DNA from: a virus
Length of the DNA: 64,000 bases
IMG/VR virus record: IMGVR_UViG_3300032242_002232
Coordinates: 35,214 to 99,213 of that record
Reading direction: 5' to 3' (one strand)
Numbering within the stretch: the first letter of the stretch is position 1; the number at the start of each line of letters is the position of its first letter. Below, in pieces: positions 23,180 through 44,792 of the stretch. Position numbers and translations under genes: made by a program. A model generated the notes under the pieces. It ran no database searches. It saw nothing but the letters and a program-made list of their open reading frames with translations, and was not told where the DNA came from.

Positions 23180-24268
23180 GTGGCAACGATTCAAGTTCTT
23201 TCTAATCGGCTTAGAGCTGAGATCGGCGACTTAGGAAGATCGTTTACTGAAACATTTACCGGTGATGGGGTTACTAAAAGATTTCAACTCCCTTACGCTC
23301 CAGTAAATGGAAGAAGTCTAAGAGTTACAGTAAATGGTTCTGACCAATCCCCAACAACTTCAGTAGAAGAAGTTAACGGTCTATTTGAGTTAAGCATTAT
23401 CCCATCTAACAATGCCGTCATCAGTGTTTCCGGCGTTGCTTATAAGTATTTTACCGACACTGAAATTCAATACTACATTAGCCAAGCTTTCTATGAGCAT
23501 GCCCATACAGCCACAGATAGCAATGGAAGCCTAAATACCCTAGCTAGCATGCCCTTTGTAGAAGAATATCCGCTAGTAACTCTTGCCACCTCTATGGCAC
23601 TTTATACGCTGGCTACCGACGCCTCTTTTGATATTGACATTGCCTCGCCTGATGGGGTCACTATCCCCCGTTCACAGCGATATCGCCAACTAATGGAGAT
23701 GGTACAAAGCAGAAAAGAACAATATAAAGAACTTTGTTCAATGCTGGGTGTCGGTATGTTTAGGATCGAAGTGCAGACTCTTCGCAGAATTAGCCGACGC
23801 ACAAACCGTTATGTACCTGTTTATCGTCCTCAAGAACTTGATGACGGATCCCTCCCAATTAGAGTTTCATTACCTATGCCTACTTATGGGGACATGACTC
23901 CTCCGGGACCCGCGGAACCTAAAGATCTATTTGTTGTTGCCGGAGATAGTTTTTCTAAATCATTTGTTTTTGATCATGATCTTACTACCTACACACCAGC
24001 GGCCCAATTACGTTTATTTCCCGAAATTCCGGCGGATCAAGTTGGCCCACTGCTTCTTGCAAACTTTACCATTACAAAGTCAGCTTCAGTTGTGGGGGGC
24101 ACCTTAAACACCCTAACGCTATACTTAAGCGGTACAGCTACAACAGACTTGCCACGCACATGCTACTGGGATCTTCAGATGACTAATAACTCGGACGGAA
24201 CTGTTAAGACATACGTGTCTGGCAAGTTCTTTACTAAACCTCAAGTTACTACCACCCAAGGAAATTAA
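23180..24268 (+). CDS. Head-tail adaptor/neck protein with C-terminal Ig-like domain
   Basis: LR.EIGD...FTD.EI.Y; C-terminal 'GD.F...F..D...Y...AQ.R...YWDLQ....G'. Confidence 0.65.
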
Positions 24269-26436
24269 TGGCTAACACACCTAATTTAATCGGAATGCCG
24301 GATGATGCAAGTAATGATCCTTCGGTCTATCTCCTTGGAATAAATAACTCTAACGGAGCTACTGGCCCAACAGGAACACAAGGTCCACAAGGACCAACAG
24401 GACCTACAGGTTCTAAAGGCGCAACCGGTGCTACCGGTGTAGGCGCAACCGGTGCAACTGGTCCATCTGGACCATCAGGTCCAACAGGTTCTACAGGTCC
24501 GCAAGGAAATGTAGGTCCAACAGGTAATACTGGTCCTACCGGTATTCAAGGAAATATTGGAGCAACAGGCCCTACAGGTGCCGCGTCAACAGTTCCAGGT
24601 CCTACAGGTTCACAAGGCTCTACTGGCCCAACAGGTCAACAAGGGCCGACAGGGCCGACAGGATCTAAGGGTGATACTGGTTCAATCGGTGCTACCGGTT
24701 CTACTGGCGCAACTGGTCCTATTGGGCCACTCGGAGCAACAGGTACTCAAGGTCCCACAGGACCAACTGGCTCTACAGGTGCAACAGGTTTGCAGGGTGT
24801 TACTGGACCCTCTGGCCCAACAGGCGGACAAGGAATTCAAGGATCAACTGGTCCTTCAGGAGCTACAGGTGTAGCTGGTCCACAAGGAAATACAGGACCT
24901 ACAGGTTCTAAAGGCGACACAGGTCCACAAGGCGTAACAGGTCCACAAGGTCCTTGGGGCGTAACTGGACCTACAGGTTCACAAGGTACCCAAGGTTTAC
25001 AGGGTAATACTGGTCCTACTGGTGCCACTGGTGGTCAAGGTCAAATTGGACCAACAGGTGTAACGGGACCAACAGGCGCTACTGGTGCTGCATCAACAGT
25101 GCCTGGCCCAACTGGTGCACAGGGACCAACAGGTCCACAAGGTATTTCAATCAAATACCAAGGAACACTTGGTAGCGTTGGAGCACTTCAATCTATTACA
25201 GGCCAAACTATAAATGATGCATACATCATTGGTAAAGATCTTTGGGTTTGGGAAGGCAACACTTGGGATAACGTAGGTGCAATTGTTGGTCCAACTGGTC
25301 CTATTGGTTTAACTGGTCCTACTGGAGCTACGGGCTCCACTGGTGCCGCATCTACCGTTGCTGGGCCAACAGGATCAACAGGACCTACTGGTTCTGTGGG
25401 ACCAACAGGTTCTACTGGTCCGCAAGGTACCCAAGGTATTCAAGGTGCAACCGGATCTACTGGCGCAACAGGATCTACTGGTCCTACTGGCGCCGCTAGC
25501 ACAATCCCAGGACCAACGGGATCAACTGGCGCTACCGGTGCCGGACTTAACGTACTCGGCACATACTCAACTCTTTCAGCGCTTCAAGCTGCGCGCCCAA
25601 CAGGCACTGCTGGTGATGCATATATTGTTGCAGGCAGTTTATATGTTTGGAATGGTTCTGCATGGACACTTGGTGGAAACATTCAAGGACCAACAGGCGG
25701 TACCGGTGCAACGGGAGCAACAGGATCAACAGGTGCAACAGGTTCTACTGGATCAACTGGCTCTAAAGGTGATACTGGTCCAGGTAAATTTACATTTGCA
25801 ACAACCCCACCATCTAACCCTGTACTCGGAGATCATTGGATTGAAGATGCAACGGGAATTGAATATACATGGAGCACAGATGGCGTAAGTACTTTTTGGG
25901 TAGAGCTTGTTCCTACAGGTTATTTAGGACCTACTGGCCCACAAGGTCCTACCGGAGCAGCCTCTACAATACCTGGCCCTACAGGTCCGACAGGTAATAC
26001 CGGTGCTACAGGAGCAACAGGCGCCAGCGTTACTGGCCCACAAGGACCTACAGGTTCTACTGGCGCAACAGGGGCAACCGGCTCAACGGGGTCTATCGGC
26101 GCTACAGGTCCAGGATCTACATACACAATTTCTTATCCTTCCGGGTCTTATATTGTTACAACTGACGACACAGCCACCTCGTTCTATATGGCCTCAAATA
26201 CTTCGGTAAACTTTCAGTTGCCGGCTAATATATCTTCACCTATACCTATTGGGTCAACAGTAACAGTTACTCAGTATGGTCTAGGTCAGGTGACTATCTC
26301 CGCCTATTTAGGTACAGCATCTATTGTCTCTAATGCATCTACAGCAAATTCTCCTAAGCTTAGGGCGCAATTTTCTTCAGCAACATGCGTAAAAATTGGA
26401 TTAGATTCGTGGCATGTAATTGGAGACATAATTTAA
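24268..26436 (+). CDS. Collagen triple-helix fibre protein
   Basis: Long (G-X-Y)n tracts, mainly GPT/GAT/GST, interrupted by short globular knots. Confidence 0.9.
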
Positions 26437-27320
26437 TGAGGAGCGCGCTGTACATAGCTTCTCAATCCTCACGCCACACAGGGGTTGTCTATAGACCAGT
26501 TAATATGATCCCTACTCCCGTGAGTAACTTTCAAGTTAGGGTTGTATTAACACCTTCCAACTTTAACTACTCCAAAGCAAGGAGTGATGGAAGAGACATT
26601 AGGTTTTACGAAAATACCAACTTCTCATCACCATTACCTATGTGGTTAGAGTCTTGGAACTATAATGGAAATTCTGCAATATGGGTAAAGGTCGCGTCAC
26701 AAAGTAAATCCCTTATGTACATGACCTATGGCAGCTCTTCTTTAACCTCCATATCTAATATTGATACCGTTATGGAAAATGGTATGCAGTTTGGTTACTT
26801 TGCAAGTACCGTACAGGGAGCCGGAGTTGGGGCTTTTAATAGCCTTCAATTTTCTGGTATAGACCCTGTTATGAGCACTGATTGGGGTTCCGGCACAGTA
26901 TCTATTAACGGGTTGGGAAGCCTAGCTGACTATGTCTCAATAAGATGGCGTGGATGGGTGAAGCCTTATGAGTCCGGAAACCATACATTTTATTTCACAA
27001 CAGATGATGGAAGCCGAATGTACATAGGCCCAGATTCCTCATATAATTCAAACCCAGCTTGGACAATAAATAGCTGGATTGATCAAGGTCCAACAGAATA
27101 TTCAGGAACCGTGTCTATAACCGACGGTGTTCCGAGGTATATGCAAAAAGAGTGGTTTGAAACTGGTGGTGGTGCAACGGCCTTGACTGGATGGGCAACC
27201 CCTAGCGTACTTAAAGTATACCCAATTACATCTGGTTACTTAAAGGCACCAAAATATGACTCTTCTTATTCAGATTCTTTTGGTTATTCCGCAACCGTTG
27301 GTTCAGAAATTACTATCTAA
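26436..27320 (+). CDS. DUF2341 + PA14 carbohydrate-binding virion protein
   Basis: F.YSKA..DGRDIRF...L..W.E.W......IWVK; SIRWRG.....G.HTF..TTDDG.R. Confidence 0.8.
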   Translation: MRSALYIASQSSRHTGVVYRPVNMIPTPVSNFQVRVVLTPSNFNYSKARSDGRDIRFYENTNFSSPLPMWLESWNYNGNSAIWVKVASQSKSLMYMTYGSSSLTSISNIDTVMENGMQFGYFASTVQGAGVGAFNSLQFSGIDPVMSTDWGSGTVSINGLGSLADYVSIRWRGWVKPYESGNHTFYFTTDDGSRMYIGPDSSYNSNPAWTINSWIDQGPTEYSGTVSITDGVPRYMQKEWFETGGGATALTGWATPSVLKVYPITSGYLKAPKYDSSYSDSFGYSATVGSEITI

Positions 27321-27342
27321 GAGAGCGTAAGGTAAAAAATAA

Positions 27343-27705
27343 ATGGCAATTAGTTTCCCAGCGTCCCCAACGCTTAATCAAGTCTATACATACGGTAATC
27401 GTAGTTGGAAGTGGACAGGTACAGCTTGGGTTTCACAAAGCGTATCTACAGCCCCAACAGGTCCAACAGGCCCAACTGGAGCAACTGGATCTGCATCTAC
27501 AGTTCCTGGACCACAGGGACCAACTGGTGCGACAGGATCTACCGGAGCAACAGGCGCCACGGGAGCTGCATCTACAGTTGCGGGACCGACAGGTTCAACG
27601 GGACCAACGGGTGCTCAAGGGTATAGTATTGTCAACTTAGACGGTGGATTTCCAGATAGTACGTATGGTGGAATCACAGCAGTAGATCTTGGAGGAGTTA
27701 GCTGA
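27343..27705 (+). CDS. Short collagen-repeat fibre protein
   Basis: MAISFP.SP....W.W.G..W head; GXY tract; LDGG..DLGG tail. Confidence 0.8.
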
Positions 27706-28109
27706 TGGCAGTTCAATTTCAGTTTAGACGCGGTACAGCCTCTCAGTGGACCGCAGCTAACACAATTCTTGCATCTGGTGAGCTTGGACTAGAATCCGAC
27801 ACAAACAAATTTAAGATTGGTAACGGCACTTCCGGCTGGAATGCGCTATCATATGCCTCAGGTACTGCAGGTGCAAATGGAGCTACAGGAGCTACCGGAG
27901 CAACTGGAGCATCAGTAACTGGAGCTACAGGAGCTACAGGGGCCACCGGTTCAGTTGGAGCCACAGGTCCTGCGGGAACTCCCGGTGATTCAAATCTAAA
28001 CAAAAAAGTAATTGATGATGCATTTCTTGGAACTAACTTTTACTTCAACAAGCAGTTTTTAACATCAACTGTTGCTCAAACTACTATTTCACCGATTACG
28101 TTAATCTAG
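27705..28109 (+). CDS. Fibre protein with Mtd-N/hyaluronidase-N-like head and short collagen tract
   Basis: QFRRGTA.QWTAAN.IL..GE.G.E.DT.KFKIG.G...W..L.Y. Confidence 0.8.
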   Translation: MAVQFQFRRGTASQWTAANTILASGELGLESDTNKFKIGNGTSGWNALSYASGTAGANGATGATGATGASVTGATGATGATGSVGATGPAGTPGDSNLNKKVIDDAFLGTNFYFNKQFLTSTVAQTTISPITLI

Positions 28110-31513: not shown

Positions 31514-31852
31514 ATGGCAAACTACGCCTCACTGAGTACCCAGATCACTCAGCTGACATCAGATATGACCACCAGTCTTACAGGTGGAACATACACATCT
31601 CAAGACTACGCGTACTACGCTAATGCGTTGTCAACCTTGGGAACAATGCTTGGGGTCAATGACATTGTGGCCGCTACATCTAACCAGGTCACTTTAGTAA
31701 CAACGGCAGGAACCACTCAAACTGGTCTTGTCAATACTGCTGGTACCACTCAGGTATCTGCGGTTAACTCCGCTGGAAGCACACAGCTTACAGCGATTAA
31801 TACAGCTGCAAACAACCTAACCATTCTAGCATACATGGGAGTACTAGCCTAA
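31514..31852 (+). CDS. Fibre-anchoring structural protein
   Basis: Thr-rich 11-residue pseudo-repeats (V.TAGTTQ); hydrophobic C-terminus LAYMGVLA. Confidence 0.6.
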   Translation: MANYASLSTQITQLTSDMTTSLTGGTYTSQDYAYYANALSTLGTMLGVNDIVAATSNQVTLVTTAGTTQTGLVNTAGTTQVSAVNSAGSTQLTAINTAANNLTILAYMGVLA

Positions 31853-32154
31853 TGGCAACAACAGTAACGCTTATTCGCCGTGGTACCGCTGGTACTACTG
31901 ACGCAGGTTATACCATCACTGGTGTAACTAACGCAATTATCACAAACGTAATCTTGTCTAACAAGACATCTAATACACGCTACGCAACAGTAACTGTTGG
32001 TGGCTACTCATTCTGTACCGCACTGCAGATCCCTGCAAACGGTACCGTAAATTTTGACGCACGCCTTGTTGCAAACAACAACGACGTAGTCGTTGTTACA
32101 GCAGATCAAGCAGCTGCAGTAGACTTTTTCATCTCTGGCGTTTATAACTCCTAA
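31852..32154 (+). CDS. Small beta-sandwich fibre adaptor
   Basis: I.NVILSN.T.....TV.....IPAN....ISG; paralogous to 39027-39371. Confidence 0.6.
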   Translation: MATTVTLIRRGTAGTTDAGYTITGVTNAIITNVILSNKTSNTRYATVTVGGYSFCTALQIPANGTVNFDARLVANNNDVVVVTADQAAAVDFFISGVYNS

Positions 32155-36634: not shown

Positions 36635-37090
36635 GTGCCTTTTTCATCTTACCCTGATATTTATCGTGCGGGTACTTCTGCGTACAATACTGCCGTTGCT
36701 TTGTCTACAAAAAGCATTTTTGCAACACCTAGCTCAAATCAGACGGTTAATCCGTTGGCAACACCATACGTAAAGGTGAATAGACCCTCTACTGTTATTA
36801 CACTTAATTTTGATATTGCTTCAAGTTTTGTTGGCCCTCAGGCGTATATTCCACTAAGAAACGTCACATACACAACATCTTCTCAAGTTATTGGGGCTAT
36901 TTGGACTGTAGAGTACGTGCCTAATACTTCAGGACAAATCCTTAACTTTGCAATCACATCCCCAGCTTCCGGAACCTCTATTGTATGGGATGGCGGATCA
37001 GCTCCGTCTGGACCAACAACATATGCGGTTTACCAGTTCTACACTCTTGATGGACTTAACGTTAAAGCAAAGGTATTGGTGAACTACTAA
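36635..37090 (+). CDS. Fibre-tip/structural protein (paralog)
   Basis: IVWDGGSAPS...F.T.DG; AAGGAG RBS with GTG start. Confidence 0.65.
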   Translation: MPFSSYPDIYRAGTSAYNTAVALSTKSIFATPSSNQTVNPLATPYVKVNRPSTVITLNFDIASSFVGPQAYIPLRNVTYTTSSQVIGAIWTVEYVPNTSGQILNFAITSPASGTSIVWDGGSAPSGPTTYAVYQFYTLDGLNVKAKVLVNY

Positions 37091-37947
37091 TGGGTCTTAC
37101 AACATATCCTCAGCCATTTCAAAAAAGTGCACAGGCATATATTAATGCGGGAATCACCTATAACGGAGCTAGCGGCCAGCTTCTTGCAACAGGCTTTATA
37201 GGCTCTACTCAGTCCCTTGGCTCATATCAAGCAGGCGGTTATGTATATGCTTCAATTCCAACAGGACAGACAACAACCCTTTCTTGGTCAGCGCCTTCCA
37301 GTACAGCTTATGGCTCTACCTGGTACGCTGAGATTTACGTCCCCACACTTGCCGTAAGCACTACGGTAGCTGCAGCTATCTCAGCTTTAACTACTGATAC
37401 GCTTGCAGCATCTGGAAGCACAGTCATTAATATTTCAAGCGCTGTCGGAATTACAACCGGTTTGATTGTAACTGGCCCGGGAATTGCAGCAGCCACTACA
37501 GTTTCTGCTGTTGGTGTTAACCAGGTAACGTTATCAAACGCCATTACCCGTGACGTATTTAAGGGAACAGCATTTACATTTACACCAACTAATGCTACTT
37601 GGCCGAGCGGAGCCACGGCTTTGCCTTTAACAAACGCCGCTAATATTGTTACTGTAGCTGGTAGTGGAACAAACGCTACTTGCACAGGTCTTGCGGCAAG
37701 CACATATGTAACTTCTGTATCAAACAGCGTAGTTACTCTATCTGCAGCCACAACTGGCTCTATTGCCGCTGGAACAGCTTTTACATCTACACCTGCTATT
37801 ACTTGGTCAGGTATCTCATGGCACAACAACGTAACTCCTACACAAGCTATTGGTGGTCGCAGTATCTATCTATTCACTGCTCCCGGAGATGGGTCGCTTA
37901 TTTACGGACGCCAAATCATGGCTAACTTAGCTGGAGCTGGGCTCTAA
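37090..37947 (+). CDS. Fibre/structural protein
   Basis: Thr/Ala/Ser-rich beta modules; related C-terminal module. Confidence 0.65.
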   Translation: MGLTTYPQPFQKSAQAYINAGITYNGASGQLLATGFIGSTQSLGSYQAGGYVYASIPTGQTTTLSWSAPSSTAYGSTWYAEIYVPTLAVSTTVAAAISALTTDTLAASGSTVINISSAVGITTGLIVTGPGIAAATTVSAVGVNQVTLSNAITRDVFKGTAFTFTPTNATWPSGATALPLTNAANIVTVAGSGTNATCTGLAASTYVTSVSNSVVTLSAATTGSIAAGTAFTSTPAITWSGISWHNNVTPTQAIGGRSIYLFTAPGDGSLIYGRQIMANLAGAGL

Positions 37948-37965: not shown

Positions 37966-39018
37966 ATGAAAGTAGCAGTATACGCAATTGCTCTTAACGA
38001 AGAGCAGTTTGTTAAACGTTGGTATGAATCAGCTATAGAAGCTGACTATCTCCTTATAGCTGACACCGGATCTACAGATAATACGGTAGAGTTAGCTAAG
38101 TCACTAGGAATTGTGTGCCACACAATTAGTGTAAAGCCTTGGAGGTTTGATGATGCTCGCAATGCTAGCCTGTCTCTTATACCCAGTGATATTGATTATT
38201 GCATTGCTCTTGATCTAGATGAAACTCTAGTTCCTGGTTGGCGCCAACATTTAGAGGTTGCCAACACAAACAAATGGACTCGTCCACGATACCTATTTAC
38301 TACAAGCTGGAATCCTGACGGATCACCAGGCATGCAGTTCAGCGGTTTTAGAATCCACGCTCGCAACGGTTACCGTTGGGTATATCCAATACATGAAATG
38401 CCGGAACCCTACAGAATCGAAGAGACTACCGGATGGGTAGATCTACAGATCGAACACCATCCCGATGATTATAAATCTCGTGGGCAGTACTTGCCCCTAC
38501 TACAAGAGGCCGCTAAAGAAAACCCAGATGATGATAGGTGCGCTTTTTACTACGCACGTGAACTTTACTTTTACCAGCTCTATGAAGATGCTGCGGAAGA
38601 ATTTAAACGCCACCTATCATTACCTAAAGCTTGGTGGGTAGCTCAGCGCGCAGCTTCCTACAGATACCTTGGAGAATGCGATCCAGACAACGCAGTTACC
38701 TGGTGGACAAAAGGATACCAAGAAGACCCCGTTCGTAGAGAGTGTGCGGTAAAGCTTACCGAGTATTACTACAAAAAAGAAGACTGGGTTATGTGTAGAG
38801 AGTGGGCTAAGAAAGCTCTAGACATAGAAACTAAAAGCTTAGACTATTTCTGTGAGCCTTGGGCCTGGGGATCTTTACCAAACGATTACCTAGCTATAGC
38901 CTCCTACAACCTGGGGGAGTACGAAACTGCCCTAGAACAGGGTAGAATTGCCTATAGTTTAGACCCGACTAATGAGCGCTTAGCCGTTAATATTAGTCAT
39001 TACACCGAAAAACTATAG
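37966..39018 (+). CDS. GT2 glycosyltransferase with TPR repeats
   Basis: VYAIALNEE, DTGSTD.T, FDDARN.SL, LDLDE, IHE, C-terminal TPR helices. Confidence 0.9.
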   Translation: MKVAVYAIALNEEQFVKRWYESAIEADYLLIADTGSTDNTVELAKSLGIVCHTISVKPWRFDDARNASLSLIPSDIDYCIALDLDETLVPGWRQHLEVANTNKWTRPRYLFTTSWNPDGSPGMQFSGFRIHARNGYRWVYPIHEMPEPYRIEETTGWVDLQIEHHPDDYKSRGQYLPLLQEAAKENPDDDRCAFYYARELYFYQLYEDAAEEFKRHLSLPKAWWVAQRAASYRYLGECDPDNAVTWWTKGYQEDPVRRECAVKLTEYYYKKEDWVMCREWAKKALDIETKSLDYFCEPWAWGSLPNDYLAIASYNLGEYETALEQGRIAYSLDPTNERLAVNISHYTEKL

Positions 39019-39026
39019 GAGTATAA

Positions 39027-39371
39027 ATGGCTACAGCCAACTATTCGATTCTAGGTCAGGCGCAACCAGTAGGGTCAAATATTGATCTATTTGCTTGTCC
39101 CGCTGCTACTCAGGCGGTCCTATCAACAATCGTAGTAAGTAACACTACCGCTACCTCAGCTACAGCTACAGTATATGTACGCAAGGCTACCGGTACCTCT
39201 CCGGCGGCGGCTGGAACAAATAACGCTATTATGTACGCAGCGCCAATCTCAGCAAACAGTCTTCAAACCCTAACGATTGGCATCACATTGGGTGCCTATG
39301 ATACTATTACTGTATCTTCCGGAACGTCCGGAGCTATTACATTTCACGCATTCGGAACAACGGTGGCATAA
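39027..39371 (+). CDS. Small beta-sandwich fibre adaptor
   Basis: MAT..Y.ILGQ..P; V.STIVV.N; I.AN...TLTIGITL...D.I.V; F.AFG. Confidence 0.65.
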   Translation: MATANYSILGQAQPVGSNIDLFACPAATQAVLSTIVVSNTTATSATATVYVRKATGTSPAAAGTNNAIMYAAPISANSLQTLTIGITLGAYDTITVSSGTSGAITFHAFGTTVA

Positions 39372-39574
39372 TGTCAAAACGACAATTTCCAGAACCTTCT
39401 GCAACTGACTACGTATTAGAGTCAACATCTAACATCAAGGAAGACCGCACTGCTACAAAAGTGGTTTCTCCTACAACTGTTACTACCGGCGCTCTTCGTA
39501 ACATCTATGCTTCCACTAATGCGCCCGTTGCTAGCGATGGCGCTGATGGAGACATCTGGCTTAAGTACGTGTAA
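39371..39574 (+). CDS. Small fibre linker protein
   Basis: RNIY.ST.AP...G.DGDIW.KY. Confidence 0.65.
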   Translation: MSKRQFPEPSATDYVLESTSNIKEDRTATKVVSPTTVTTGALRNIYASTNAPVASDGADGDIWLKYV

Positions 39575-39577
39575 GCA

Positions 39578-40960
39578 ATGGCTGAGTACATCAAGCAGGG
39601 CGGTACTTGGAAGCAAGTATCCGATGATACTACATCTAGCACAGTAGCTTACATTAAGGTAGGTGGTGTTTGGCGCGGAGTAAACGCGCAGTACATTAAA
39701 GTAGCGGGAACTTGGCGAGCAGTTTCTGCGTTTGCGGCAACATATACAGTCCCTAACGTTGTAGGTTTAGATCTAGCCTCAGCACAGGCCATTATCACCA
39801 GTTCAGGAAACGCGGTAGGTTCTACATCAACTACTGCTTCTGGAGCGACTTCTGGAAACAACGGACAAGTTCAATCACAGTCCGTAGCTGCAGGCACGTA
39901 TAGCTCTGCTCAAACCATTAACCTAGTAACATATGCGTACTCTGCACCGATTATTAATCAGATTATTTCTGTAGGTGTTATTGCTACCCCTGCACAGCAA
40001 GACTCTATATCTAGCTATGATACCGCTGGCTACATCGGAGATACGTTACATATTTATGGTAATTTTACTAAGAGCATTACTAACATTACTGTTGGCGGTA
40101 CGTATGTAAGCTACAGTCAAACCTCGTCGAGTATATCTTGGACTATGCCAAGTATTTCTGCTGGTTCTTACAGCGTCCAGGTCTTCGATGGTCAAGTACC
40201 TCTTTTATCTGCTTTTACGGTAACTAACTACGGTACACGCCCATCAATTCAGATTGCTTTTAATCCTATTCAGATCCAGGTACCTCAGATTCAGATTGCG
40301 TTTAATCCTATTCAGATTAACTTTAATCCCATCCAGATCCAGGTACCTAATGTTAACTTTGTTACTGTTTTAGTTGGTGCAACAACAATTATTCAAATTA
40401 GATCTTCACAAGTTCAAAATATCTTCTACCACTCCTACTATATTAGCCCTTACTACGGTGTACGAGTAAGCTGTATTCACGGAGATACCTTTATGAAAGT
40501 ATATGAGGGAGACACGATTACAACTAAAAAGGCTAGAGATATTGAGCCTGGCGATGAGTTAGTTGGTGTGGTGTTTAAGGAACTTGACCCTAGTGTTAAG
40601 GTAAATACCTATGACTGGCAGGCCACAAGCCTTACCTACGATACTCTTGAAAAGACTACTGTTGTTAAAGTTGAGCCGTCAGTCCATGAACGCTTCATGT
40701 ACTTTAACGATGACGAGACTTCAGTATTTTCTATGTCAGAGCCTATGCTTGTAGGGCGAAACGGTCAATACGAGTTCTTTGCTTCTGGTATGATTCTGGA
40801 AGGCGATACTCTTTACAAGCTTAAATCAGACCACTCTGGTTATGAAGAGGTACTCGTAGAAAAGATTACATTTACTAGAGGAGAGGATGACGGGTTTAAT
40901 TTCCACTGCGAACCTGATCACGTTATCGTAGCTGGGGATTACATCGTTCACAATAAGTAA
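39578..40960 (+). CDS. Fibre protein: PASTA + IPT/Ig + IQ-repeat + C-terminal Hint (intein-like) domain
   Basis: YIK.GG.W repeats, VPNVVGL (PASTA), GD.L.I.G.F (IPT), S/CIHGDT at Cys299, GD.L, terminal IVHN-K-stop. Confidence 0.85.
   Translation: MAEYIKQGGTWKQVSDDTTSSTVAYIKVGGVWRGVNAQYIKVAGTWRAVSAFAATYTVPNVVGLDLASAQAIITSSGNAVGSTSTTASGATSGNNGQVQSQSVAAGTYSSAQTINLVTYAYSAPIINQIISVGVIATPAQQDSISSYDTAGYIGDTLHIYGNFTKSITNITVGGTYVSYSQTSSSISWTMPSISAGSYSVQVFDGQVPLLSAFTVTNYGTRPSIQIAFNPIQIQVPQIQIAFNPIQINFNPIQIQVPNVNFVTVLVGATTIIQIRSSQVQNIFYHSYYISPYYGVRVSCIHGDTFMKVYEGDTITTKKARDIEPGDELVGVVFKELDPSVKVNTYDWQATSLTYDTLEKTTVVKVEPSVHERFMYFNDDETSVFSMSEPMLVGRNGQYEFFASGMILEGDTLYKLKSDHSGYEEVLVEKITFTRGEDDGFNFHCEPDHVIVAGDYIVHNK
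40247..40360 (+). repeat. Coding tandem repeat IQIAFNP/IQIQVP
   Basis: IQIAFNPIQIQVPQIQIAFNPIQINFNPIQIQVPNVNF; recurring attcagat and tttaatcc units. Confidence 0.8.
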
Positions 40961-41562
40961 TGACATACTCAAGGGCAGAAGAGTTACTACCGGGTGTTAA
41001 AGCCTATTACGATGTTTGGCCAGAGTCCCAGGACTTCATAAAAAAACTAGAGCTTGACTCTGAAAAAGGTCTTGCTTGGGTTCCTGCAGCTATAAATAAA
41101 GAGGGCAAAGGCCCAGTAGTAGACACCCAAATTAGGGTTTTAGATGTCCTTAGCATAACTAGGTTTGAATCTGGGTTGAATACTGATAGGCCTTTAGTTG
41201 AGGCGGCTTACGACGCTTACACAAAACTGTCTTCAAACTTAGACCCAATTGTTGATGAGTATGTTAAAGAGTTCAGCGTAGCGGTGACCTCCAAAGAGCC
41301 TTACCAAATACTTAGGTATAAGGAGAGTAACTTCTTTAGATATCACGTAGATGACTCCCCAAATAGGCCTAGACGATTGTCCTATTGCTATTATGTAAAT
41401 GACGATTACGAGGGCGGTGAGCTTCACTTTGGAAAATTTGATAAGACCATTAAACCCGAAGCCGGGCAGCTAGTCGTATTTCCATCCAACTATCTGTATG
41501 CTCATGCCGCTAGACCAATACTAAACGGAACAAAATATGTGGTGTCATCATGGTGGAATTAA
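40960..41562 (+). CDS. 2OG-Fe(II) oxygenase, prolyl-4-hydroxylase-like
   Basis: ILRY...F..HVD, Y.NDDYEGGEL.F, FPSN..Y.H...P...G.KY. Confidence 0.9.
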   Translation: MTYSRAEELLPGVKAYYDVWPESQDFIKKLELDSEKGLAWVPAAINKEGKGPVVDTQIRVLDVLSITRFESGLNTDRPLVEAAYDAYTKLSSNLDPIVDEYVKEFSVAVTSKEPYQILRYKESNFFRYHVDDSPNRPRRLSYCYYVNDDYEGGELHFGKFDKTIKPEAGQLVVFPSNYLYAHAARPILNGTKYVVSSWWN

Positions 41563-42236
41563 CTTTTGTGTCTATAGACGGGGTGCCCAGCCCCGAACCT
41601 GATAGAACGAGCACTACCCTTCCTAAATGGTACAGGGAGGCTTCACGGTATTTTGAGGGCACTAAGAACTCTACTTTTAAGAACTGCATGGCTTTTTTTG
41701 ATGCCATGAGTGCGGGGTACGTACTTATTACTCCTTGCGATATTACTGTTATACAGAAAGAGGGCAAGCCTATAATTGAGCTTGATTCCCGGTTTCAAAC
41801 CTTCATATCTTCTCGTGCCCCTATGGACCAATTTCATGCACCAGAGGGCTACCATAAAGAGCATTATGCGTTCTTAATGCAGTGGGGGATATCAACCCCG
41901 CCAGGTTATAGCAGCCTATGCATTTCGCCCTTAAACCGTTTTGATCTCCCATTTATAGTCACTAACGGGATTATAGACAGCGACAACTTATCTACCCCCG
42001 GGAACGTACCCTTCTTCATCAGAGAGGGTTACGAGGGTGTGATTCCTGCGGGAACCCCCTACCTCCAAGTAATCCCTTTTAAGAGGGAGGAGTGGAACGC
42101 TAAGTCAGTAAGGGAAGTTGATTTACTAAACTTAAGGAAGTACAATAAGATCGGATTTAAACTTCGAGGCGTGGTTAGCAACTACTACCGAGAAAACTAC
42201 TGGGTTAAAAAAATCTACAGGAAGAGGGCTCAATGA
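41550..42236 (+). CDS. Conserved phage protein commonly found beside 2OG oxygenases (function unknown)
   Basis: P.WY..., TFK.C..F.DAM..GY, TPPGYS, GIIDSD, GTP..Q.IPFKRE.W. Confidence 0.6.
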   Translation: MVELTFVSIDGVPSPEPDRTSTTLPKWYREASRYFEGTKNSTFKNCMAFFDAMSAGYVLITPCDITVIQKEGKPIIELDSRFQTFISSRAPMDQFHAPEGYHKEHYAFLMQWGISTPPGYSSLCISPLNRFDLPFIVTNGIIDSDNLSTPGNVPFFIREGYEGVIPAGTPYLQVIPFKREEWNAKSVREVDLLNLRKYNKIGFKLRGVVSNYYRENYWVKKIYRKRAQ

Positions 42237-42985
42237 TTATCCAGATTATCGGTCTGCCAGGATCTGGTAAGACTACTTTAGCTACCGCACTTAAAGAGCG
42301 CATCAACGCAGTTCATTTAAACGCGGATTACGTACGCTCCACCATTAACTCTGATTTGGGTTTTGCCCCAGAGGATCGTGTAGAACATGCACGCCGTATG
42401 GGGGAAATGGCACGTATGCTGTCCGGCCAGGACCTAGATGTAGTCGTAGACTTTATATGCCCAACACAAACAACACGAGAAGCTTTTGGTAAGGCTGACA
42501 TAGTTGTATGGATGGATACCCTTAAGGAAGGGCGCTTTGAAGATACAAACAAACTATGGGAAACCCCTACATCCTTTGACTATAAGTTTGAGACATTTGA
42601 TGCAGATGCTAATGTCAACAATATTATCTTTACATCCAACCTTCATGACTGGAAGGCGCCAACAACCCTAATGCTTGGTCGCTATCAACCATGGCATGAA
42701 GGGCACCACGCCCTATACCATGAGGCTAAGAACCGTACACAACAGGTAATGCTTGGGGTACGCAACACTCAAGGTACCAGCCCTAAAGACCCATTAAGCT
42801 TTGATGAAGTAAAGGGCTATATATCAGCTGATCCTGCTATGAATGGGGCCATGGTTATCAAGATGCCTAATATTACAAACATCGTATACGGCAGAGATGT
42901 TGGGTATAAGATCGAACAAGTTAAGTTAGGAGATGAAATTGAAGCCATTAGTGCTACTCAAAAACGTAAAGAAATGGGTATCTAG
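42233..42985 (+). CDS. Adenylylsulfate-kinase-like domain fused to a HIGH-family nucleotidyltransferase
   Basis: GLPGSGKTT, NAD.VR...DLGF..EDR.E..RR; GRYQPWHEGH. Confidence 0.8.
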   Translation: MIIQIIGLPGSGKTTLATALKERINAVHLNADYVRSTINSDLGFAPEDRVEHARRMGEMARMLSGQDLDVVVDFICPTQTTREAFGKADIVVWMDTLKEGRFEDTNKLWETPTSFDYKFETFDADANVNNIIFTSNLHDWKAPTTLMLGRYQPWHEGHHALYHEAKNRTQQVMLGVRNTQGTSPKDPLSFDEVKGYISADPAMNGAMVIKMPNITNIVYGRDVGYKIEQVKLGDEIEAISATQKRKEMGI

Positions 42986-43018
42986 CCTGCTTGACCTTAT
43001 GTCGTTAGGGGCGGGACA

Positions 43019-43228
43019 ATGAACGTAACCCATTCAAGATCTTTTACTAAAGCCGTTACTTGGCGACTTACTGGAACTTTTGACACCTTTATTCTTTCAT
43101 ATGTAATTACTGGAAAAGCTAAGCTCGCTTTAGCAATTTCAGGGATGGAGATATTTACCAAAATATTTCTTTATTACGTACATGAACGCGTTTGGAACAA
43201 AGTTCAGTGGGGAAGAGATGAAGTTTAA
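43019..43228 (+). CDS. DUF2061-family small membrane protein
   Basis: RS..KA.TWR..GT.DT....Y.ITG...K..LYY.HERVW. Confidence 0.85.
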   Translation: MNVTHSRSFTKAVTWRLTGTFDTFILSYVITGKAKLALAISGMEIFTKIFLYYVHERVWNKVQWGRDEV

Positions 43229-43985
43229 GTCTTTTTATCATTTGCATGCCCCAAAGACTGGGGGTAGGTTTGTACTCAATAATGTCCTGCACCTTCTGTA
43301 TTCGCACATGGAGGCTGCAGGCATTGAGGTTATTAACAATGTTCCTATTGAGCATCCTGGTGCACACAGCGCTTGGCTCCCACAAATTAATGACGATACC
43401 TACGTATTCTCTACATTCAGGGACCCAGTAACACATTCCTGTAGCCTGTTTTTTCATATGGTGGCGATGGAGGATGCACCACAGTTTTTTCCAAACCCCC
43501 CTGTATTTACACCTAAACTTTTAAATTCAAGATACCTTGTAAACTACATGACAGCTGGTGGGTTTAATGGGTATTTGATGAGCAATTTTCAGTCTAAAAA
43601 CTTTTTGTATGATCGCCCCTTTTTTGGTGGGCCCATTGAAAAAGATATAGACCCGGCAATTAAAGACGATGTTTTGATGCAAAGAATTCGCAGAACAAAC
43701 CTCCTTTTACGCATGGAGCAGATACCCCAAAACCCAGAAGTTTTAGCTGCCAAGCTGATAGACGACCTGGAACTACCTATTACTATCGAGCAGTTTAAAC
43801 AAGATTATGCAGCTAAGCTGGATTTTCTTACAGTCCTAAACCCCCTGCTTATAGTAAAAGAAAACGCAGATTTGGCTCGTTCTTTGACCGAAAAGGATCT
43901 GGAAACCATTAAACCTTATATAGCTGTTGATCAGGGTATATACTCTGACGATAGTGTATTTTATACATTTGATCAGGAGAACTAA
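43218..43985 (+). CDS. Sulfotransferase-fold protein
   Basis: 5'-PSB HLHAPKTGG; 3'-PB TFRDP....S. Confidence 0.75.
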   Translation: MKFKSFYHLHAPKTGGRFVLNNVLHLLYSHMEAAGIEVINNVPIEHPGAHSAWLPQINDDTYVFSTFRDPVTHSCSLFFHMVAMEDAPQFFPNPPVFTPKLLNSRYLVNYMTAGGFNGYLMSNFQSKNFLYDRPFFGGPIEKDIDPAIKDDVLMQRIRRTNLLLRMEQIPQNPEVLAAKLIDDLELPITIEQFKQDYAAKLDFLTVLNPLLIVKENADLARSLTEKDLETIKPYIAVDQGIYSDDSVFYTFDQEN

Positions 43986-44792
43986 ATGGAAGTCAGTACG
44001 CATTGTAACGGGAATGTAAAGATCATCCAGGGTTTCTTCACTAAAGAAGAAGCTGCTGAGCTGTCATCTTGGTTTGACACTTTTCCATTCGAAGACTTAG
44101 AGGTAAGCTCTGTTAAGTTTTGGGGTAAGAAGCAGTTCCATCACAGCCTTCAACATGACCCTAAATGGGCTCCGATTTTTGCTCCAGTAAAGCACATCAC
44201 CGACACAATTGATGAGCGTATTAGACAAGCCCTCGACTTAGTGCAGCCCGGCCAAACCTGGCATGCATGGCCTACTGCCTTCATTAAAATGTACCCTGGA
44301 TCTAACCCAAATGATTATGATGCAGATAAAATGGAGATGTTTTATCACATGGATAATCAAGCGCATATGGCTACCTTGATTACCTGGGGTGGGGTTATGT
44401 ATCTCAACGAAGACTACGAGGGTGGCGAAATTAGATACCCAGTTTATGATTTTGAATACAAGCCTGTTGCAGGTAGCATGGTTTTGCACAGCGGTTTTAC
44501 GGTTCACGGAGTAAAGAAAGTTACAAAGGGTAATCGTTACGGATTGACTTCTTTAATTAGCCGAGACGGGCACTGGAATAATGGCTGCTTACCTACACCT
44601 ACAGGTAAACCTGAAGGACCTTCATATATCTACCCTATGGGTTATTGGGGTCGCCGTGTTGGTGACGACCGTGTTGATCCCGGAGCGGATATCAAGATTT
44701 TACGTCCAGATGGAACTACCCGACCATATTGCGATAACCCATCAGTAGGCATCGACCTATGGAATAAAAAGTATATGAGGACGTATAGTTAA
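43986..44792 (+). CDS. 2OG-Fe(II) oxygenase
   Basis: HMD, YLNEDYEGGEI, HGV..V..G.RY. Confidence 0.88.
   Translation: MEVSTHCNGNVKIIQGFFTKEEAAELSSWFDTFPFEDLEVSSVKFWGKKQFHHSLQHDPKWAPIFAPVKHITDTIDERIRQALDLVQPGQTWHAWPTAFIKMYPGSNPNDYDADKMEMFYHMDNQAHMATLITWGGVMYLNEDYEGGEIRYPVYDFEYKPVAGSMVLHSGFTVHGVKKVTKGNRYGLTSLISRDGHWNNGCLPTPTGKPEGPSYIYPMGYWGRRVGDDRVDPGADIKILRPDGTTRPYCDNPSVGIDLWNKKYMRTYS

Follow-up and report, generated by a model that had tools for sequence, protein, structure and literature searches.

In mycobacteriophages, virions are glycosylated by phage-encoded glycosyltransferases, with glycans on the C termini of capsid and tail-tube proteins (Freeman et al. 2023, as cited in PMC12619734). 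We describe here a block of ten genes at positions 37966-44792 of a 64,000-nucleotide stretch of a phage genome (bases 35214-99213 of IMG/VR record IMGVR_UViG_3300032242_002232; this whole stretch is "the window" below), which encodes a glycosyltransferase, a fibre protein ending in a Hint domain, two 2-oxoglutarate (2OG) oxygenases, and proteins related to sulfate-activating enzymes and sulfotransferases. As in the mycobacteriophages, the phage is actinobacterial, the glycosyltransferase gene lies inside the structural operon, and virion decoration would probably occur in the cytoplasm before assembly. Unlike in the mycobacteriophages, the predicted enzyme, a family 2 glycosyltransferase with a C-terminal tetratricopeptide repeat (GT2-TPR), is linked to collagen-like fibre genes and has hydroxylase and sulfation genes alongside. 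We favour, at about even confidence, a reading of the block as a mosaic of three cassettes within a late structural operon, which would serve glycosylation, a Hint-terminated fibre, and the making and use of activated sulfate.

The other parts of the block also have described counterparts. The window's genome resembles those encoding the animal prolyl 4-hydroxylase (P4H) and LH3, the Bacillus anthracis P4H, and the PBCV-1 P4H in combining a P4H-type oxygenase, a glycosyltransferase, and collagen-like repeats, and the collagen hydroxylase-glycosyltransferase of Mimivirus is a further viral parallel; unlike in those systems, the window's oxygenases are not co-inherited with GT2-TPR or collagen genes, and their matches are weak. 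Rhizobial Nod-factor sulfation, in which NodP/NodQ supply 3'-phosphoadenosine 5'-phosphosulfate (PAPS) to the sulfotransferase NodH, likewise has a module for sulfate activation at a single accessory locus along with a glycan sulfotransferase and DUF2061, and a NodU-type carbamoyltransferase is found in relatives of the window. Unlike in NodPQ/NodH, activation would fall to a 250-residue fusion of an adenosine 5'-phosphosulfate (APS) kinase-like domain and a NadM-like adenylyltransferase (hereafter kinNT), which is not of the CysD/CysN type, and no likeness to NodH was detected in the sequence of the sulfotransferase. The fusion shares with metazoan PAPS synthase an N-terminal APS kinase and a C-terminal nucleotidyltransferase of the HxGH class, and differs from it in a C-terminal domain of only ~105 residues that is NadM-like and has no Sat-type match; any sulfurylase activity is hypothetical.

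In addition, kinNT probably belongs to the same family as the freshwater phage "cysC" (PMC10914622; bioRxiv 10.1101/655167), which also has APS_kinase Pfam matches and comes from ~100-kb phages; at odds with the assimilatory sulfate reduction proposed in those papers are the fused adenylyltransferase, the pairing with DUF2061, and the frequent proximity of sulfotransferase-fold genes. The Hint domain resembles those of the bacterial intein-like (BIL) and Hedgehog types in its N-terminal Cys, its C-terminal His-Asn, its terminal position in a variable surface-type protein, and its expected self-removal, and differs in having lost the block-B His in the window copy and in always following a hydrophobic/Pro repeat. 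Self-cleaving C-terminal chaperone domains of tailspikes offer a functional parallel, with S74 domains unrelated in fold to Hint. The sulfotransferase-fold protein resembles heparan sulfate (HS) 2-O/6-O sulfotransferases and the Sulfotransfer_2/NKWYS families in fold and language-model clusters, without sequence-level membership. Annotated phage sulfotransferases are already known and each element of the block has a known analogue; their combination, the kinNT-DUF2061 unit, and the link between GT2-TPR and collagen-like genes appear undescribed in the literature we searched.

A ten-gene block within a late structural operon

The record is 99,213 bp long and rated complete by CheckV, and the source phage is a freshwater actinobacterial myophage of ~99 kb. 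Its closest named relative is Actinomycetia phage DSL-LC01 from lake water (glycosyltransferase 56% identical), and the nearest cellular DUF2061 gene lies in a Candidatus Nanopelagicaceae metagenome-assembled genome; a megablast search of the block against 50,697 phage records gave no match. A single long plus-strand operon runs from terminase through portal, major head protein, collagen-like fibre, and large virion proteins to the tail genes, and the block sits in its middle, between head/fibre and tail genes, following virion-protein genes that extend to 37947. Its ten plus-strand open reading frames (ORFs) have abutting or overlapping ends. The genes and domains are as follows, with 2OG_A and 2OG_B denoting the first and second oxygenase.

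37966..39018, +, glycosyltransferase GT2-TPR (GT-A type, C-terminal TPR); Pfam GT2 above cut-off, phrog_13126 6e-109
39027..39371, +, 114-residue Thr/Ala-rich small protein; clusters with the family of a paralogue at 31852-32154
39371..39574, +, 67-residue protein between the 114-residue protein and the fibre gene; sole match phrog_22680, 4e-4
39578..40960, +, fibre/receptor-binding-type protein, 460 residues; PASTA 29.2 bits, Hint profile
39743-39931, +, PASTA domain of the fibre protein
40247-40351, +, IQ/Pro repeat of the fibre protein
40472-40957, +, Hint domain of the fibre protein
40960..41562, +, P4H-like 2OG/Fe(II) oxygenase 2OG_A; PF13640 5.4e-16, 59.8 bits (cut-off 27)
41550..42236, +, DUF6065-like protein of dUTPase/dCTP-deaminase fold; Atlas DUF6065 clusters 0.98, GIIDSD at residue 140
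42233..42985, +, kinNT ("phage cysC"), APS-kinase-like/NadM-like HxGH adenylyltransferase fusion; APS_kinase 59.4 bits
42233-42652, +, shortened APS-kinase domain of kinNT
42656-42982, +, adenylyltransferase domain of kinNT
43019..43228, +, DUF2061 small predicted membrane protein; PF09834 3e-20
43182..43985, +, sulfotransferase-fold protein (AlphaFold2 model); start overlaps the DUF2061 end by 47 nt
43986..44792, +, second 2OG/Fe(II) oxygenase 2OG_B, PKHD/P4H branch; phrog_61 3.6e-12
24268..28109, +, collagen-like fibre genes with PHROG tail-fibre/collagen-like matches, candidate GT2-TPR substrates
37090..37947, +, 285-residue Ser/Thr/Ala/Gly-rich protein directly upstream of GT2-TPR, candidate substrate; no family match
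16373, 18892, and 21542, +, terminase, portal, and major head protein, at the head end of the operon
47376, 48973, and 50573, +, tail sheath, tube, and tape measure, at the tail end of the operon, which also holds the baseplate hub

A preliminary description of the window, made from the letters and their translations, had reported ten tightly packed genes within a structural operon, as the ORF layout and the flanking head and tail genes confirm, and its domain calls (GT2, TPR, PASTA, Hint, both 2OG oxygenases, the kinase fusion, DUF2061, and the sulfotransferase fold) were all reproduced; its names adaptor and linker for the 114- and 67-residue proteins are guesses. No useful Pfam match at E <= 10 was obtained for the Hint region, for the sulfotransferase and 2OG_B, or for the small proteins and genes g36635, g37090, and g44792.

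We compared ~190 related phage loci, onto which the window proteins were mapped (loci are numbered with the prefix L). The locus sets comprised 29 for the sulfotransferase, 80 for the kinase fusion, 80 for GT2-TPR, 2 for Hint, and 80 bacterial ones for DUF2061. An ORF was called collagen-like if it held at least 8 G-X-Y triplets. The sulfotransferase loci came from an alignment-based scan of viral contigs, a single-protein scan of viral contigs having given none; for Hint, a broad alignment proved too diverse and a narrower one yielded the two loci.

Glycosyltransferase, collagen-like genes, and the Hint-terminated fibre

GT2-TPR scores above cut-off with the Pfam families PF13704 (33.3 bits, cut-off 27.5) and PF00535 (31.4 bits, cut-off 23.3), and a DxD-like DLD was spotted by eye at residues 83-85. 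Across the 80 GT2-TPR loci it is strongly and specifically linked to collagen-like and fibre genes. Of these loci, 61 have a collagen-like ORF within 10 kb; among loci drawn from the same phage pool, the corresponding counts are 9 of 79 for kinNT and 8 of 29 for the sulfotransferase. In 34 of the 80, the nearest such ORF is no more than 252 nt away. Among 54 homologues at 50-65% identity, 26 have a same-strand collagen-like ORF as their immediate upstream neighbour and 12 have one as their immediate downstream neighbour, and the gene order in DSL-LC01 is collagen, collagen, hypothetical, halogenase, glycosyltransferase. GT2-TPR is a core gene of the lineage that travels with fibre genes. In the window sublineage, the 285-residue Ser/Thr/Ala/Gly-rich protein lies upstream, in a position occupied by a collagen-like gene in most relatives, and two small proteins and the fibre gene lie downstream. 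The collagen-like proteins of the window phage itself include one of 722 residues (24268-26436) with 12 runs of 5-25 G-X-Y triplets, besides two small collagen-like ORFs.

Matches of GT2-TPR to PDB sequences are all weak, led by a ThuS-like enzyme (7msk, 1.1e-3), GmaR (1.2e-3), and the peptide-binding domain of P4H alpha-2 (6evl, 1.4e-3). Those of the catalytic half among solved structures (E ~1e-3 or worse) are the peptide glycosyltransferases ThuS-like and SunS and the flagellin glycosyltransferase GmaR, and the TPR half also matches, weakly, the peptide-binding domain of collagen P4H. Because of the collagen linkage, the peptide-glycosyltransferase matches, and the TPR likeness, the glycosylation of virion fibres proposed earlier is the best-supported part of that proposal, and the prediction that GT2-TPR glycosylates repetitive fibre proteins has good support. 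Papers on freshwater actinophages (including PMC10202952) assume DNA glycosylation or cell-wall modification for such glycosyltransferases. In dozens of uncultured phages, GT2-TPR is linked to collagen-like genes, which contradicts the common view of actinophage glycosyltransferases as DNA-modifying enzymes and would extend virion glycosylation beyond the mycobacteriophages.

The fibre protein begins with an N terminus bearing three YIKxGGxW(K/R) repeats and contains, besides the PASTA domain, an Ig/IPT-like stretch seen by eye only. The Hint nucleophile, Cys299, comes right after an IQIAFNP-type repeat and a Tyr-rich stretch, and the protein ends in VHN (residues 457-459), Lys, and the stop codon. 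Both the N-terminal Cys and the C-terminal His-Asn are conserved among the homologues; in nearly all of 106 Hint homologues the domain is C-terminal, and the 45 tails we read start with C-x-x-x-D-T and end with H-N followed by one to five non-nucleophilic residues. Other members of the family carry FGFTPFG-type repeats where the window has the IQIAFNP-type repeat. A profile of the homologues matches, among solved structures, the Pho RadA intein (9.7e-7), a V-ATPase intein (2.8e-6), and the BIL domain 2lwy (6.9e-6); a Pfam search with the single Hint sequence gave no match. A splicing intein was ruled out, there being no +1 Cys/Ser/Thr after the terminal Asn and no insertion within a host protein.

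Relatives of the fibre gene have a conserved N terminus and very different C termini: five encode proteins of ~600 residues without Hint, three encode proteins of 220-231 residues, and the window alone has PASTA plus Hint. Such exchange of the C terminus behind a conserved N terminus is the usual behaviour of receptor-binding proteins. The order 114-residue protein, 67-residue protein, fibre gene is kept in L194-L202, L258, and L271, and the 114-residue protein directly follows GT2-TPR in 12 of the 80 loci. The latter, which matches only phrog_1276 (unknown function) and, weakly, Enas (0.012), is probably a small structural or fibre-associated protein. Its paralogue and itself (31852-32154 and 39027-39371; ~100-114 residues, Thr/Ala-rich) each lie just upstream of a fibre-like gene, a pairing repeated in relatives, and the two weakly resemble endospore-appendage (Ena) subunits (E = 0.012).

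Both oxygenases fall, in keeping with the hydroxylation proposed earlier, in the protein-hydroxylase (P4H/PKHD) branch, and Pfam scans of them found no TET/JBP family. 2OG_A has the triad H129, D131 (HxD), and His182, plus Lys192, and its best PDB matches are the Bacillus anthracis prolyl 4-hydroxylase (1e-4), the PBCV-1 P4H, and LH3, overall weak (1e-4 to 0.07). 2OG_B has the triad H121, D123 (HxD), and His174, plus Arg184; its assignment draws on the PHROG match and PiuC (1e-3), with weak P4H matches besides, and it accompanies the sulfotransferase in L003.

The gene between 2OG_A and kinNT, an unknown conserved enzyme in the preliminary description, encodes a member of a large phage family close to DUF6065 and has a dUTPase fold. 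Its AlphaFold2 model (pLDDT 90.1) retrieves with VIA a top 22 that are all of dUTPase/dCTP-deaminase fold (Z 9.3-5.6; best rmsd 4.0 over 127 aligned residues), two of them dUTPase-derived herpesvirus proteins, beyond which Z falls below 4 except for one unrelated chain at 5.2; the best Foldseek E value is 5.2e-4 (dUTPase superfamily). The sequence has no Pfam match and shows by eye only the motif-3-like GIIDSD out of five dUTPase motifs; a canonical dUTPase (PF00692) is absent from the phage's own genome. The gene adjoins 2OG_A and the Hint protein in L192 and L193 and lies within the sulfation cassette in L004 and L017.

The Hint neighbourhood could be compared in two loci of the same broad phage pool. 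In L192, with a Hint domain 36% identical to the window's, the succession of small protein, Hint protein, 2OG_A, and DUF6065 recurs, and after it come a further oxygenase, a sugar epimerase, a gene that is O-FucT-like at a score below cut-off, and a PASTA protein; L193 has a Hint protein with two DUF6065 copies. There is moderate support for a self-processing receptor-binding fibre with a hydroxylase partner, and Hint-terminated fibres suggest a new way to mature or ligate receptor-binding proteins.

Probable sulfate activation, DUF2061, and a sulfotransferase-fold protein in a variable island

The N-terminal part of kinNT matches APS_kinase (PF01583) with 59.4 bits (cut-off 21.1) over residues 2-84, covering only positions 4-91 of the 152-position profile, and the 19 best PDB matches of its N-terminal 140 residues are all APS kinases (4e-11 to 8e-7), with which the P-loop GLPGSGKT and the APS-binding Arg, Phe, and Arg align. 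The C-terminal ~105 residues match CTP_transf_like and carry HxGH and ISATxxR motifs; a profile of this domain finds NadM/archaeal nicotinamide mononucleotide adenylyltransferases (3.5e-5, 5.7e-4), as well as phosphopantetheine adenylyltransferase and pantothenate synthetase. A GRDVGY motif in kinNT presumably resembles the GRDHAG motif of sulfurylases. The protein has 4891 database relatives.

DUF2061 adjoins kinNT in 68 of 86 phage loci. In bacteria, the genes flanking DUF2061 (80 loci) include PAPS/APS-reductase-family genes (23), CysA (16), sulfite reductase (15), CysT/W (12), and Rrf2 (8), and CysNC occurs in ~10, directly upstream in 8 including the Nanopelagicaceae genome. A DUF2061 gene also lies within rhizobial nod loci that have nodH, nodP, and nodQ among their nod genes (bioRxiv 10.1101/2022.04.26.489235). 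This operon context is independent of the kinase match and makes a sulfonucleotide role of kinNT much likelier than, for example, NAD salvage; kinNT and DUF2061 are both tied to sulfate activation. Judging from genome context, a role of DUF2061 in sulfate uptake or sensing seems worth testing, and kinNT may point to a new, very small PAPS route and to a function of this uncharacterized family. DUF2061 was seen in sulfate-assimilation operons over many phyla (L112-L191, e.g., L112:4033-6198), with neighbours including cysH/cysD-family genes, and some genomes encode two fused DUF2061 domains (L134, a 238-residue ORF).

The sulfotransferase fold proposed earlier is borne out by an AlphaFold2 model built from 11 homologues (pLDDT 86.5). 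With VIA, the best matches are HS 6-O-ST (Z 11.6, rmsd 4.8, 216 aligned residues), HS 2-O-ST (11.4), and NDST (9.4), the order being HS 6-O/2-O enzymes, then NDST and 3-OST, with tyrosylprotein sulfotransferases lower (6.5-6.8); 21 of the top 24 are sulfotransferases or retinol dehydratase, itself a sulfotransferase-fold enzyme. The top 50 of Foldseek are all sulfotransferases or retinol dehydratase (best E = 1.6e-3). Plant-type tyrosylprotein sulfotransferases are also among the structural neighbours, and the Atlas language-model neighbours are NKWYS capsular-polysaccharide and Sulfotransfer_2 clusters. In sequence, the protein belongs to no curated family (no Pfam match at E <= 10, only chance matches of its profile to PDB sequences, and no PF03567 Sulfotransfer_2 in its own genome at E <= 10) and its family, which is confined to phages, is small (11 clusters and 29 loci). 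It carries HAPKTGGRF (a PKTGG loop) at residue 24, FRDPVTHSCS at 79, and NFQSKN at 135; R80 and S88 are invariant in 11 homologues, and of the 7 homologues that cover the loop, 2 have Trp and 1 has Arg in place of its Lys. Judged by eye, the PKTGG loop and the R...S pair may correspond to the canonical 5'-phosphosulfate-binding loop (PKxGxT-like) and 3'-phosphate motif. On this model, the protein looks like a glycan O-sulfotransferase, which would suit a fibre glycan and a host wall glycan equally well.

The conserved frame of the gene is the longer one, overlapping DUF2061; public gene calls for three homologues and for the window product start at Met43, giving 225 residues and cutting off the PKTGG loop (43182-43308 in the window). 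Two tandem sulfotransferase paralogues occur near collagen-like genes and DUF6065 in L011:9230-10771. The sulfotransferase and kinNT lie within 10 kb of each other in 8 of the 29 sulfotransferase loci, in several gene orders, and a sulfotransferase-fold gene stands beside kinNT-DUF2061 in the window, L003, L004, L017, and L271, and probably in Xylella phage Sano.

In L017:4398-6857, each gene overlaps the next in a run encoding a sulfotransferase, a stand-alone 140-residue APS-kinase domain, DUF6065, and a CmcI-like methyltransferase, so that the kinase domain also exists unfused, without the adenylyltransferase. In Sano, an unrelated siphophage, a NADAR-domain protein and a 195-residue protein precede the fusion (L002:4957-6726, genes 33-35, all annotated as hypothetical). 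The 195-residue protein, encoded two genes upstream of the fusion, has Sulfotransfer_4 as its only Pfam match, at a sub-threshold 20.7 bits, and hhalign of the Sano_33 protein with the sulfotransferase alignment found no similarity.

In the window lineage, these genes fill a variable island, bounded by the fibre gene on one side and a conserved gene at 44792 on the other. Among the close relatives with a filled island, two carry kinNT-DUF2061, one carries 2OG_A-kinNT-DUF2061, and one a weak sulfotransferase-like ORF plus 2OG_A-kinNT-DUF2061, the window having the fullest set; in L004 the cassette further includes genes for an Asp/Asn beta-hydroxylase and a JmjC-like protein. Island content tracks fibre type, in that loci with a 600-residue fibre (L195-L202) have an empty island and those with a short fibre of 220-231 residues (L194, L258, L271) or a Hint-ended one have kinNT-DUF2061. 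This match could reflect shared ancestry or functional coupling.

Proposed roles and competing explanations

From the observed domain identities, folds, and gene linkages, we infer substrates, a sulfurylase role, and an order of steps as follows. GT2-TPR would be a cytoplasmic protein glycosyltransferase that attaches sugars ahead of fibre assembly. Its TPR arm would most likely dock on repetitive fibre proteins, which could be the collagen-like ones with G-X-T triplets or the Ser/Thr-rich product of the gene next upstream. The fibre gene would join a fixed N-terminal anchor to an exchangeable C terminus, here composed of wall-binding PASTA/Ig-like parts, the IQ/Pro repeat, and a BIL-type Hint domain, which would form a thioester at Cys299 and then cut itself off or pass the new C terminus to another nucleophile. 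2OG_A would probably hydroxylate Pro, Lys, Asn, or Asp residues of the Hint fibre or of the collagen-like fibres, and the dUTPase-fold DUF6065 protein travels with the fibre gene and 2OG_A. The APS-kinase domain would convert APS to PAPS, the fused NadM-like domain may make APS from sulfate and ATP, DUF2061 may be a membrane partner of the sulfate pathway, and the sulfotransferase would move sulfate to a hydroxyl, most plausibly on a sugar. The favoured acceptor would be a fibre glycan, a host envelope glycan being almost as likely. PAPS-dependent sulfation by the island is likely, with candidate acceptors only; PAPS-making and PAPS-using chemistry has good support, and the proposed target weak support.

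Several observations weigh against this reading. In the 80 GT2-TPR loci, kinNT occurs in 3, the sulfotransferase in 1, and 2OG_A in 3, and the island is empty in five close relatives that keep GT2-TPR and the fibre (L195, L196, L197, L200, and L202). Only 14 of 86 kinNT loci have this sulfotransferase within 10 kb; ten near-complete kinNT genomes divide into 5 with a sulfotransferase-profile match anywhere and 5 with none, and two complete sulfotransferase-bearing phages lack kinNT. In distant relatives, the same genes are mixed with halogenase, carbamoyltransferase, TauD, glutathione-peroxidase-like, HSP20, CHAP, and nuclease genes, so that their co-location may partly reflect a shared accessory hot spot. 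The collagen genes of the window phage are 10 kb away from GT2-TPR, whose score with TPR_P4H (PF23558), 26.3 bits, is under the cut-off of 27. Among loci with this synteny, no fibre but the window's contains a Hint domain, and in block B of that domain the His of TxxH is replaced (SMSEP), some homologues keeping TEYHP or TAEHP; its absence makes the cleavage efficiency of the window's Hint domain uncertain. The kinNT family has LNAD instead of LDGD and a shortened lid segment, and no ATP sulfurylase is among the matches of its adenylyltransferase-domain profile.

The single co-inherited pathway of the preliminary description, in which hydroxylation preceded glycosylation or sulfation, is not supported, the three units being inherited separately; of the neighbourhood co-occurrence it had proposed as a check, the part concerning GT2-TPR and collagen genes stood, whereas the oxygenases proved not to be co-inherited with either.

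The explanation that competes best with the favoured mosaic is that GT2-TPR alone serves the fibres and that the island (kinNT, DUF2061, sulfotransferase, oxygenases, and DUF6065) sulfates or hydroxylates glycans or lipids of the host envelope at a late stage of infection, which would hide receptors and so spare progeny from loss on debris, or would exclude other phages; we regard it as possible, if somewhat unlikely. It would account for the presence or absence of the island independently of the fibre genes, for the nearness of the sulfotransferase by fold and language model to glycan and capsular-polysaccharide enzymes, and for the location of these genes in accessory regions away from structural genes in relatives, including the non-structural region that holds kinNT in Sano, and cell-wall modification has been published as one role of actinophage glycosyltransferases (PMC10202952). 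In the window lineage, however, the island always lies directly after a receptor-binding-type fibre gene inside the late operon, and the oxygenase families present are protein hydroxylases.

A bolder version of the mosaic reading appears doubtful to us. In it, the widespread freshwater "cysC" would be a miniature self-sufficient PAPS synthase, with its NadM-like domain serving as the sulfate adenylyltransferase fused to the APS kinase, and would work with DUF2061 in phages of sulfur-poor actinobacteria, whose collagen-like or Hint-processed fibres would carry sulfate, sugars, and hydroxyl groups; if true, it would mean an extracellular-matrix-like coat on a bacterial virus.

Somewhat more doubtful still is that kinNT and DUF2061 form an auxiliary metabolic module that boosts host sulfate assimilation toward cysteine and methionine, with unrelated morons as neighbours. 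The preliminary description had held that these are not host auxiliary metabolic genes, and a simple assimilatory role indeed fits poorly with the phage genome: searches of it for PAPS reductase, canonical ATP sulfurylase (PF01747), and a CysQ-type phosphatase were all empty, and it lacks APS reductase and sulfite reductase as well. Actinobacterial PAPS is not known to serve any process but sulfotransfer. In actinobacteria, APS marks the point at which assimilation branches and itself enters the reductive branch (PMC4373884). An assimilatory role has nonetheless been published, together with high in situ transcription of phage cysC (PMC10914622; bioRxiv 10.1101/655167), and it agrees with DUF2061 being an assimilation-operon gene in bacteria and with kinNT-DUF2061 being far more widespread than the sulfotransferase. 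It leaves the fused adenylyltransferase unexplained, as well as the sulfotransferase-fold gene adjoining the pair in the loci named above. Because of the kinase-adenylyltransferase fusion, the pairing with DUF2061, and the frequent nearby sulfotransferases, the assimilatory interpretation of the abundantly transcribed lake phage "cysC" may be wrong.

It is quite improbable that the enzymes tailor a small peptide or metabolite, in the manner of ribosomally synthesized and post-translationally modified peptides or of Nod factors, with the Hint protein or a small ORF as precursor. In relatives, kinNT-DUF2061 and the sulfotransferase do occur together with genes for a Trp halogenase, a NodU/CmcH-type carbamoyltransferase, TauD, a luciferase-like monooxygenase, and O-methyltransferases, and the occurrence of DUF2061 with nodH, nodP, and nodQ points the same way, but no recognizable precursor, core biosynthetic enzyme, or exporter was found, and in the window phage these genes stand between those for fibre and tail proteins.

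Least probable of all is a nucleotide or DNA hypermodification system that evades restriction, as might be suggested by the dUTPase/dCTP-deaminase fold with GIIDSD in a genome lacking a canonical dUTPase, by the P-loop kinase and nucleotidyltransferase, by the DNA-modifying glycosyltransferases and 2OG (TET/JBP) enzymes known from phages (cited in PMC12619734), and by the DNA glycosylation assumed by authors of actinophage papers, since the oxygenases match P4H/PKHD and not TET/JBP, the glycosyltransferase is tied to collagen-like genes and has a peptide-binding-type TPR arm, the kinase aligns specifically with APS kinases, and the genes lie in the late structural operon and not in the replication module.

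A dense region of tailoring enzymes occurs in a more distant relative (L005:1425-19200). Behind kinNT-DUF2061 come genes for a Trp halogenase, a pyrimidine-dimer glycosylase, a NodU/CmcH-type carbamoyltransferase, a GDSL-like protein, and the sulfotransferase; farther along are those for a glutathione-peroxidase-like protein, 2OG oxygenases, a luciferase-like monooxygenase, DUF6065, and TauD.

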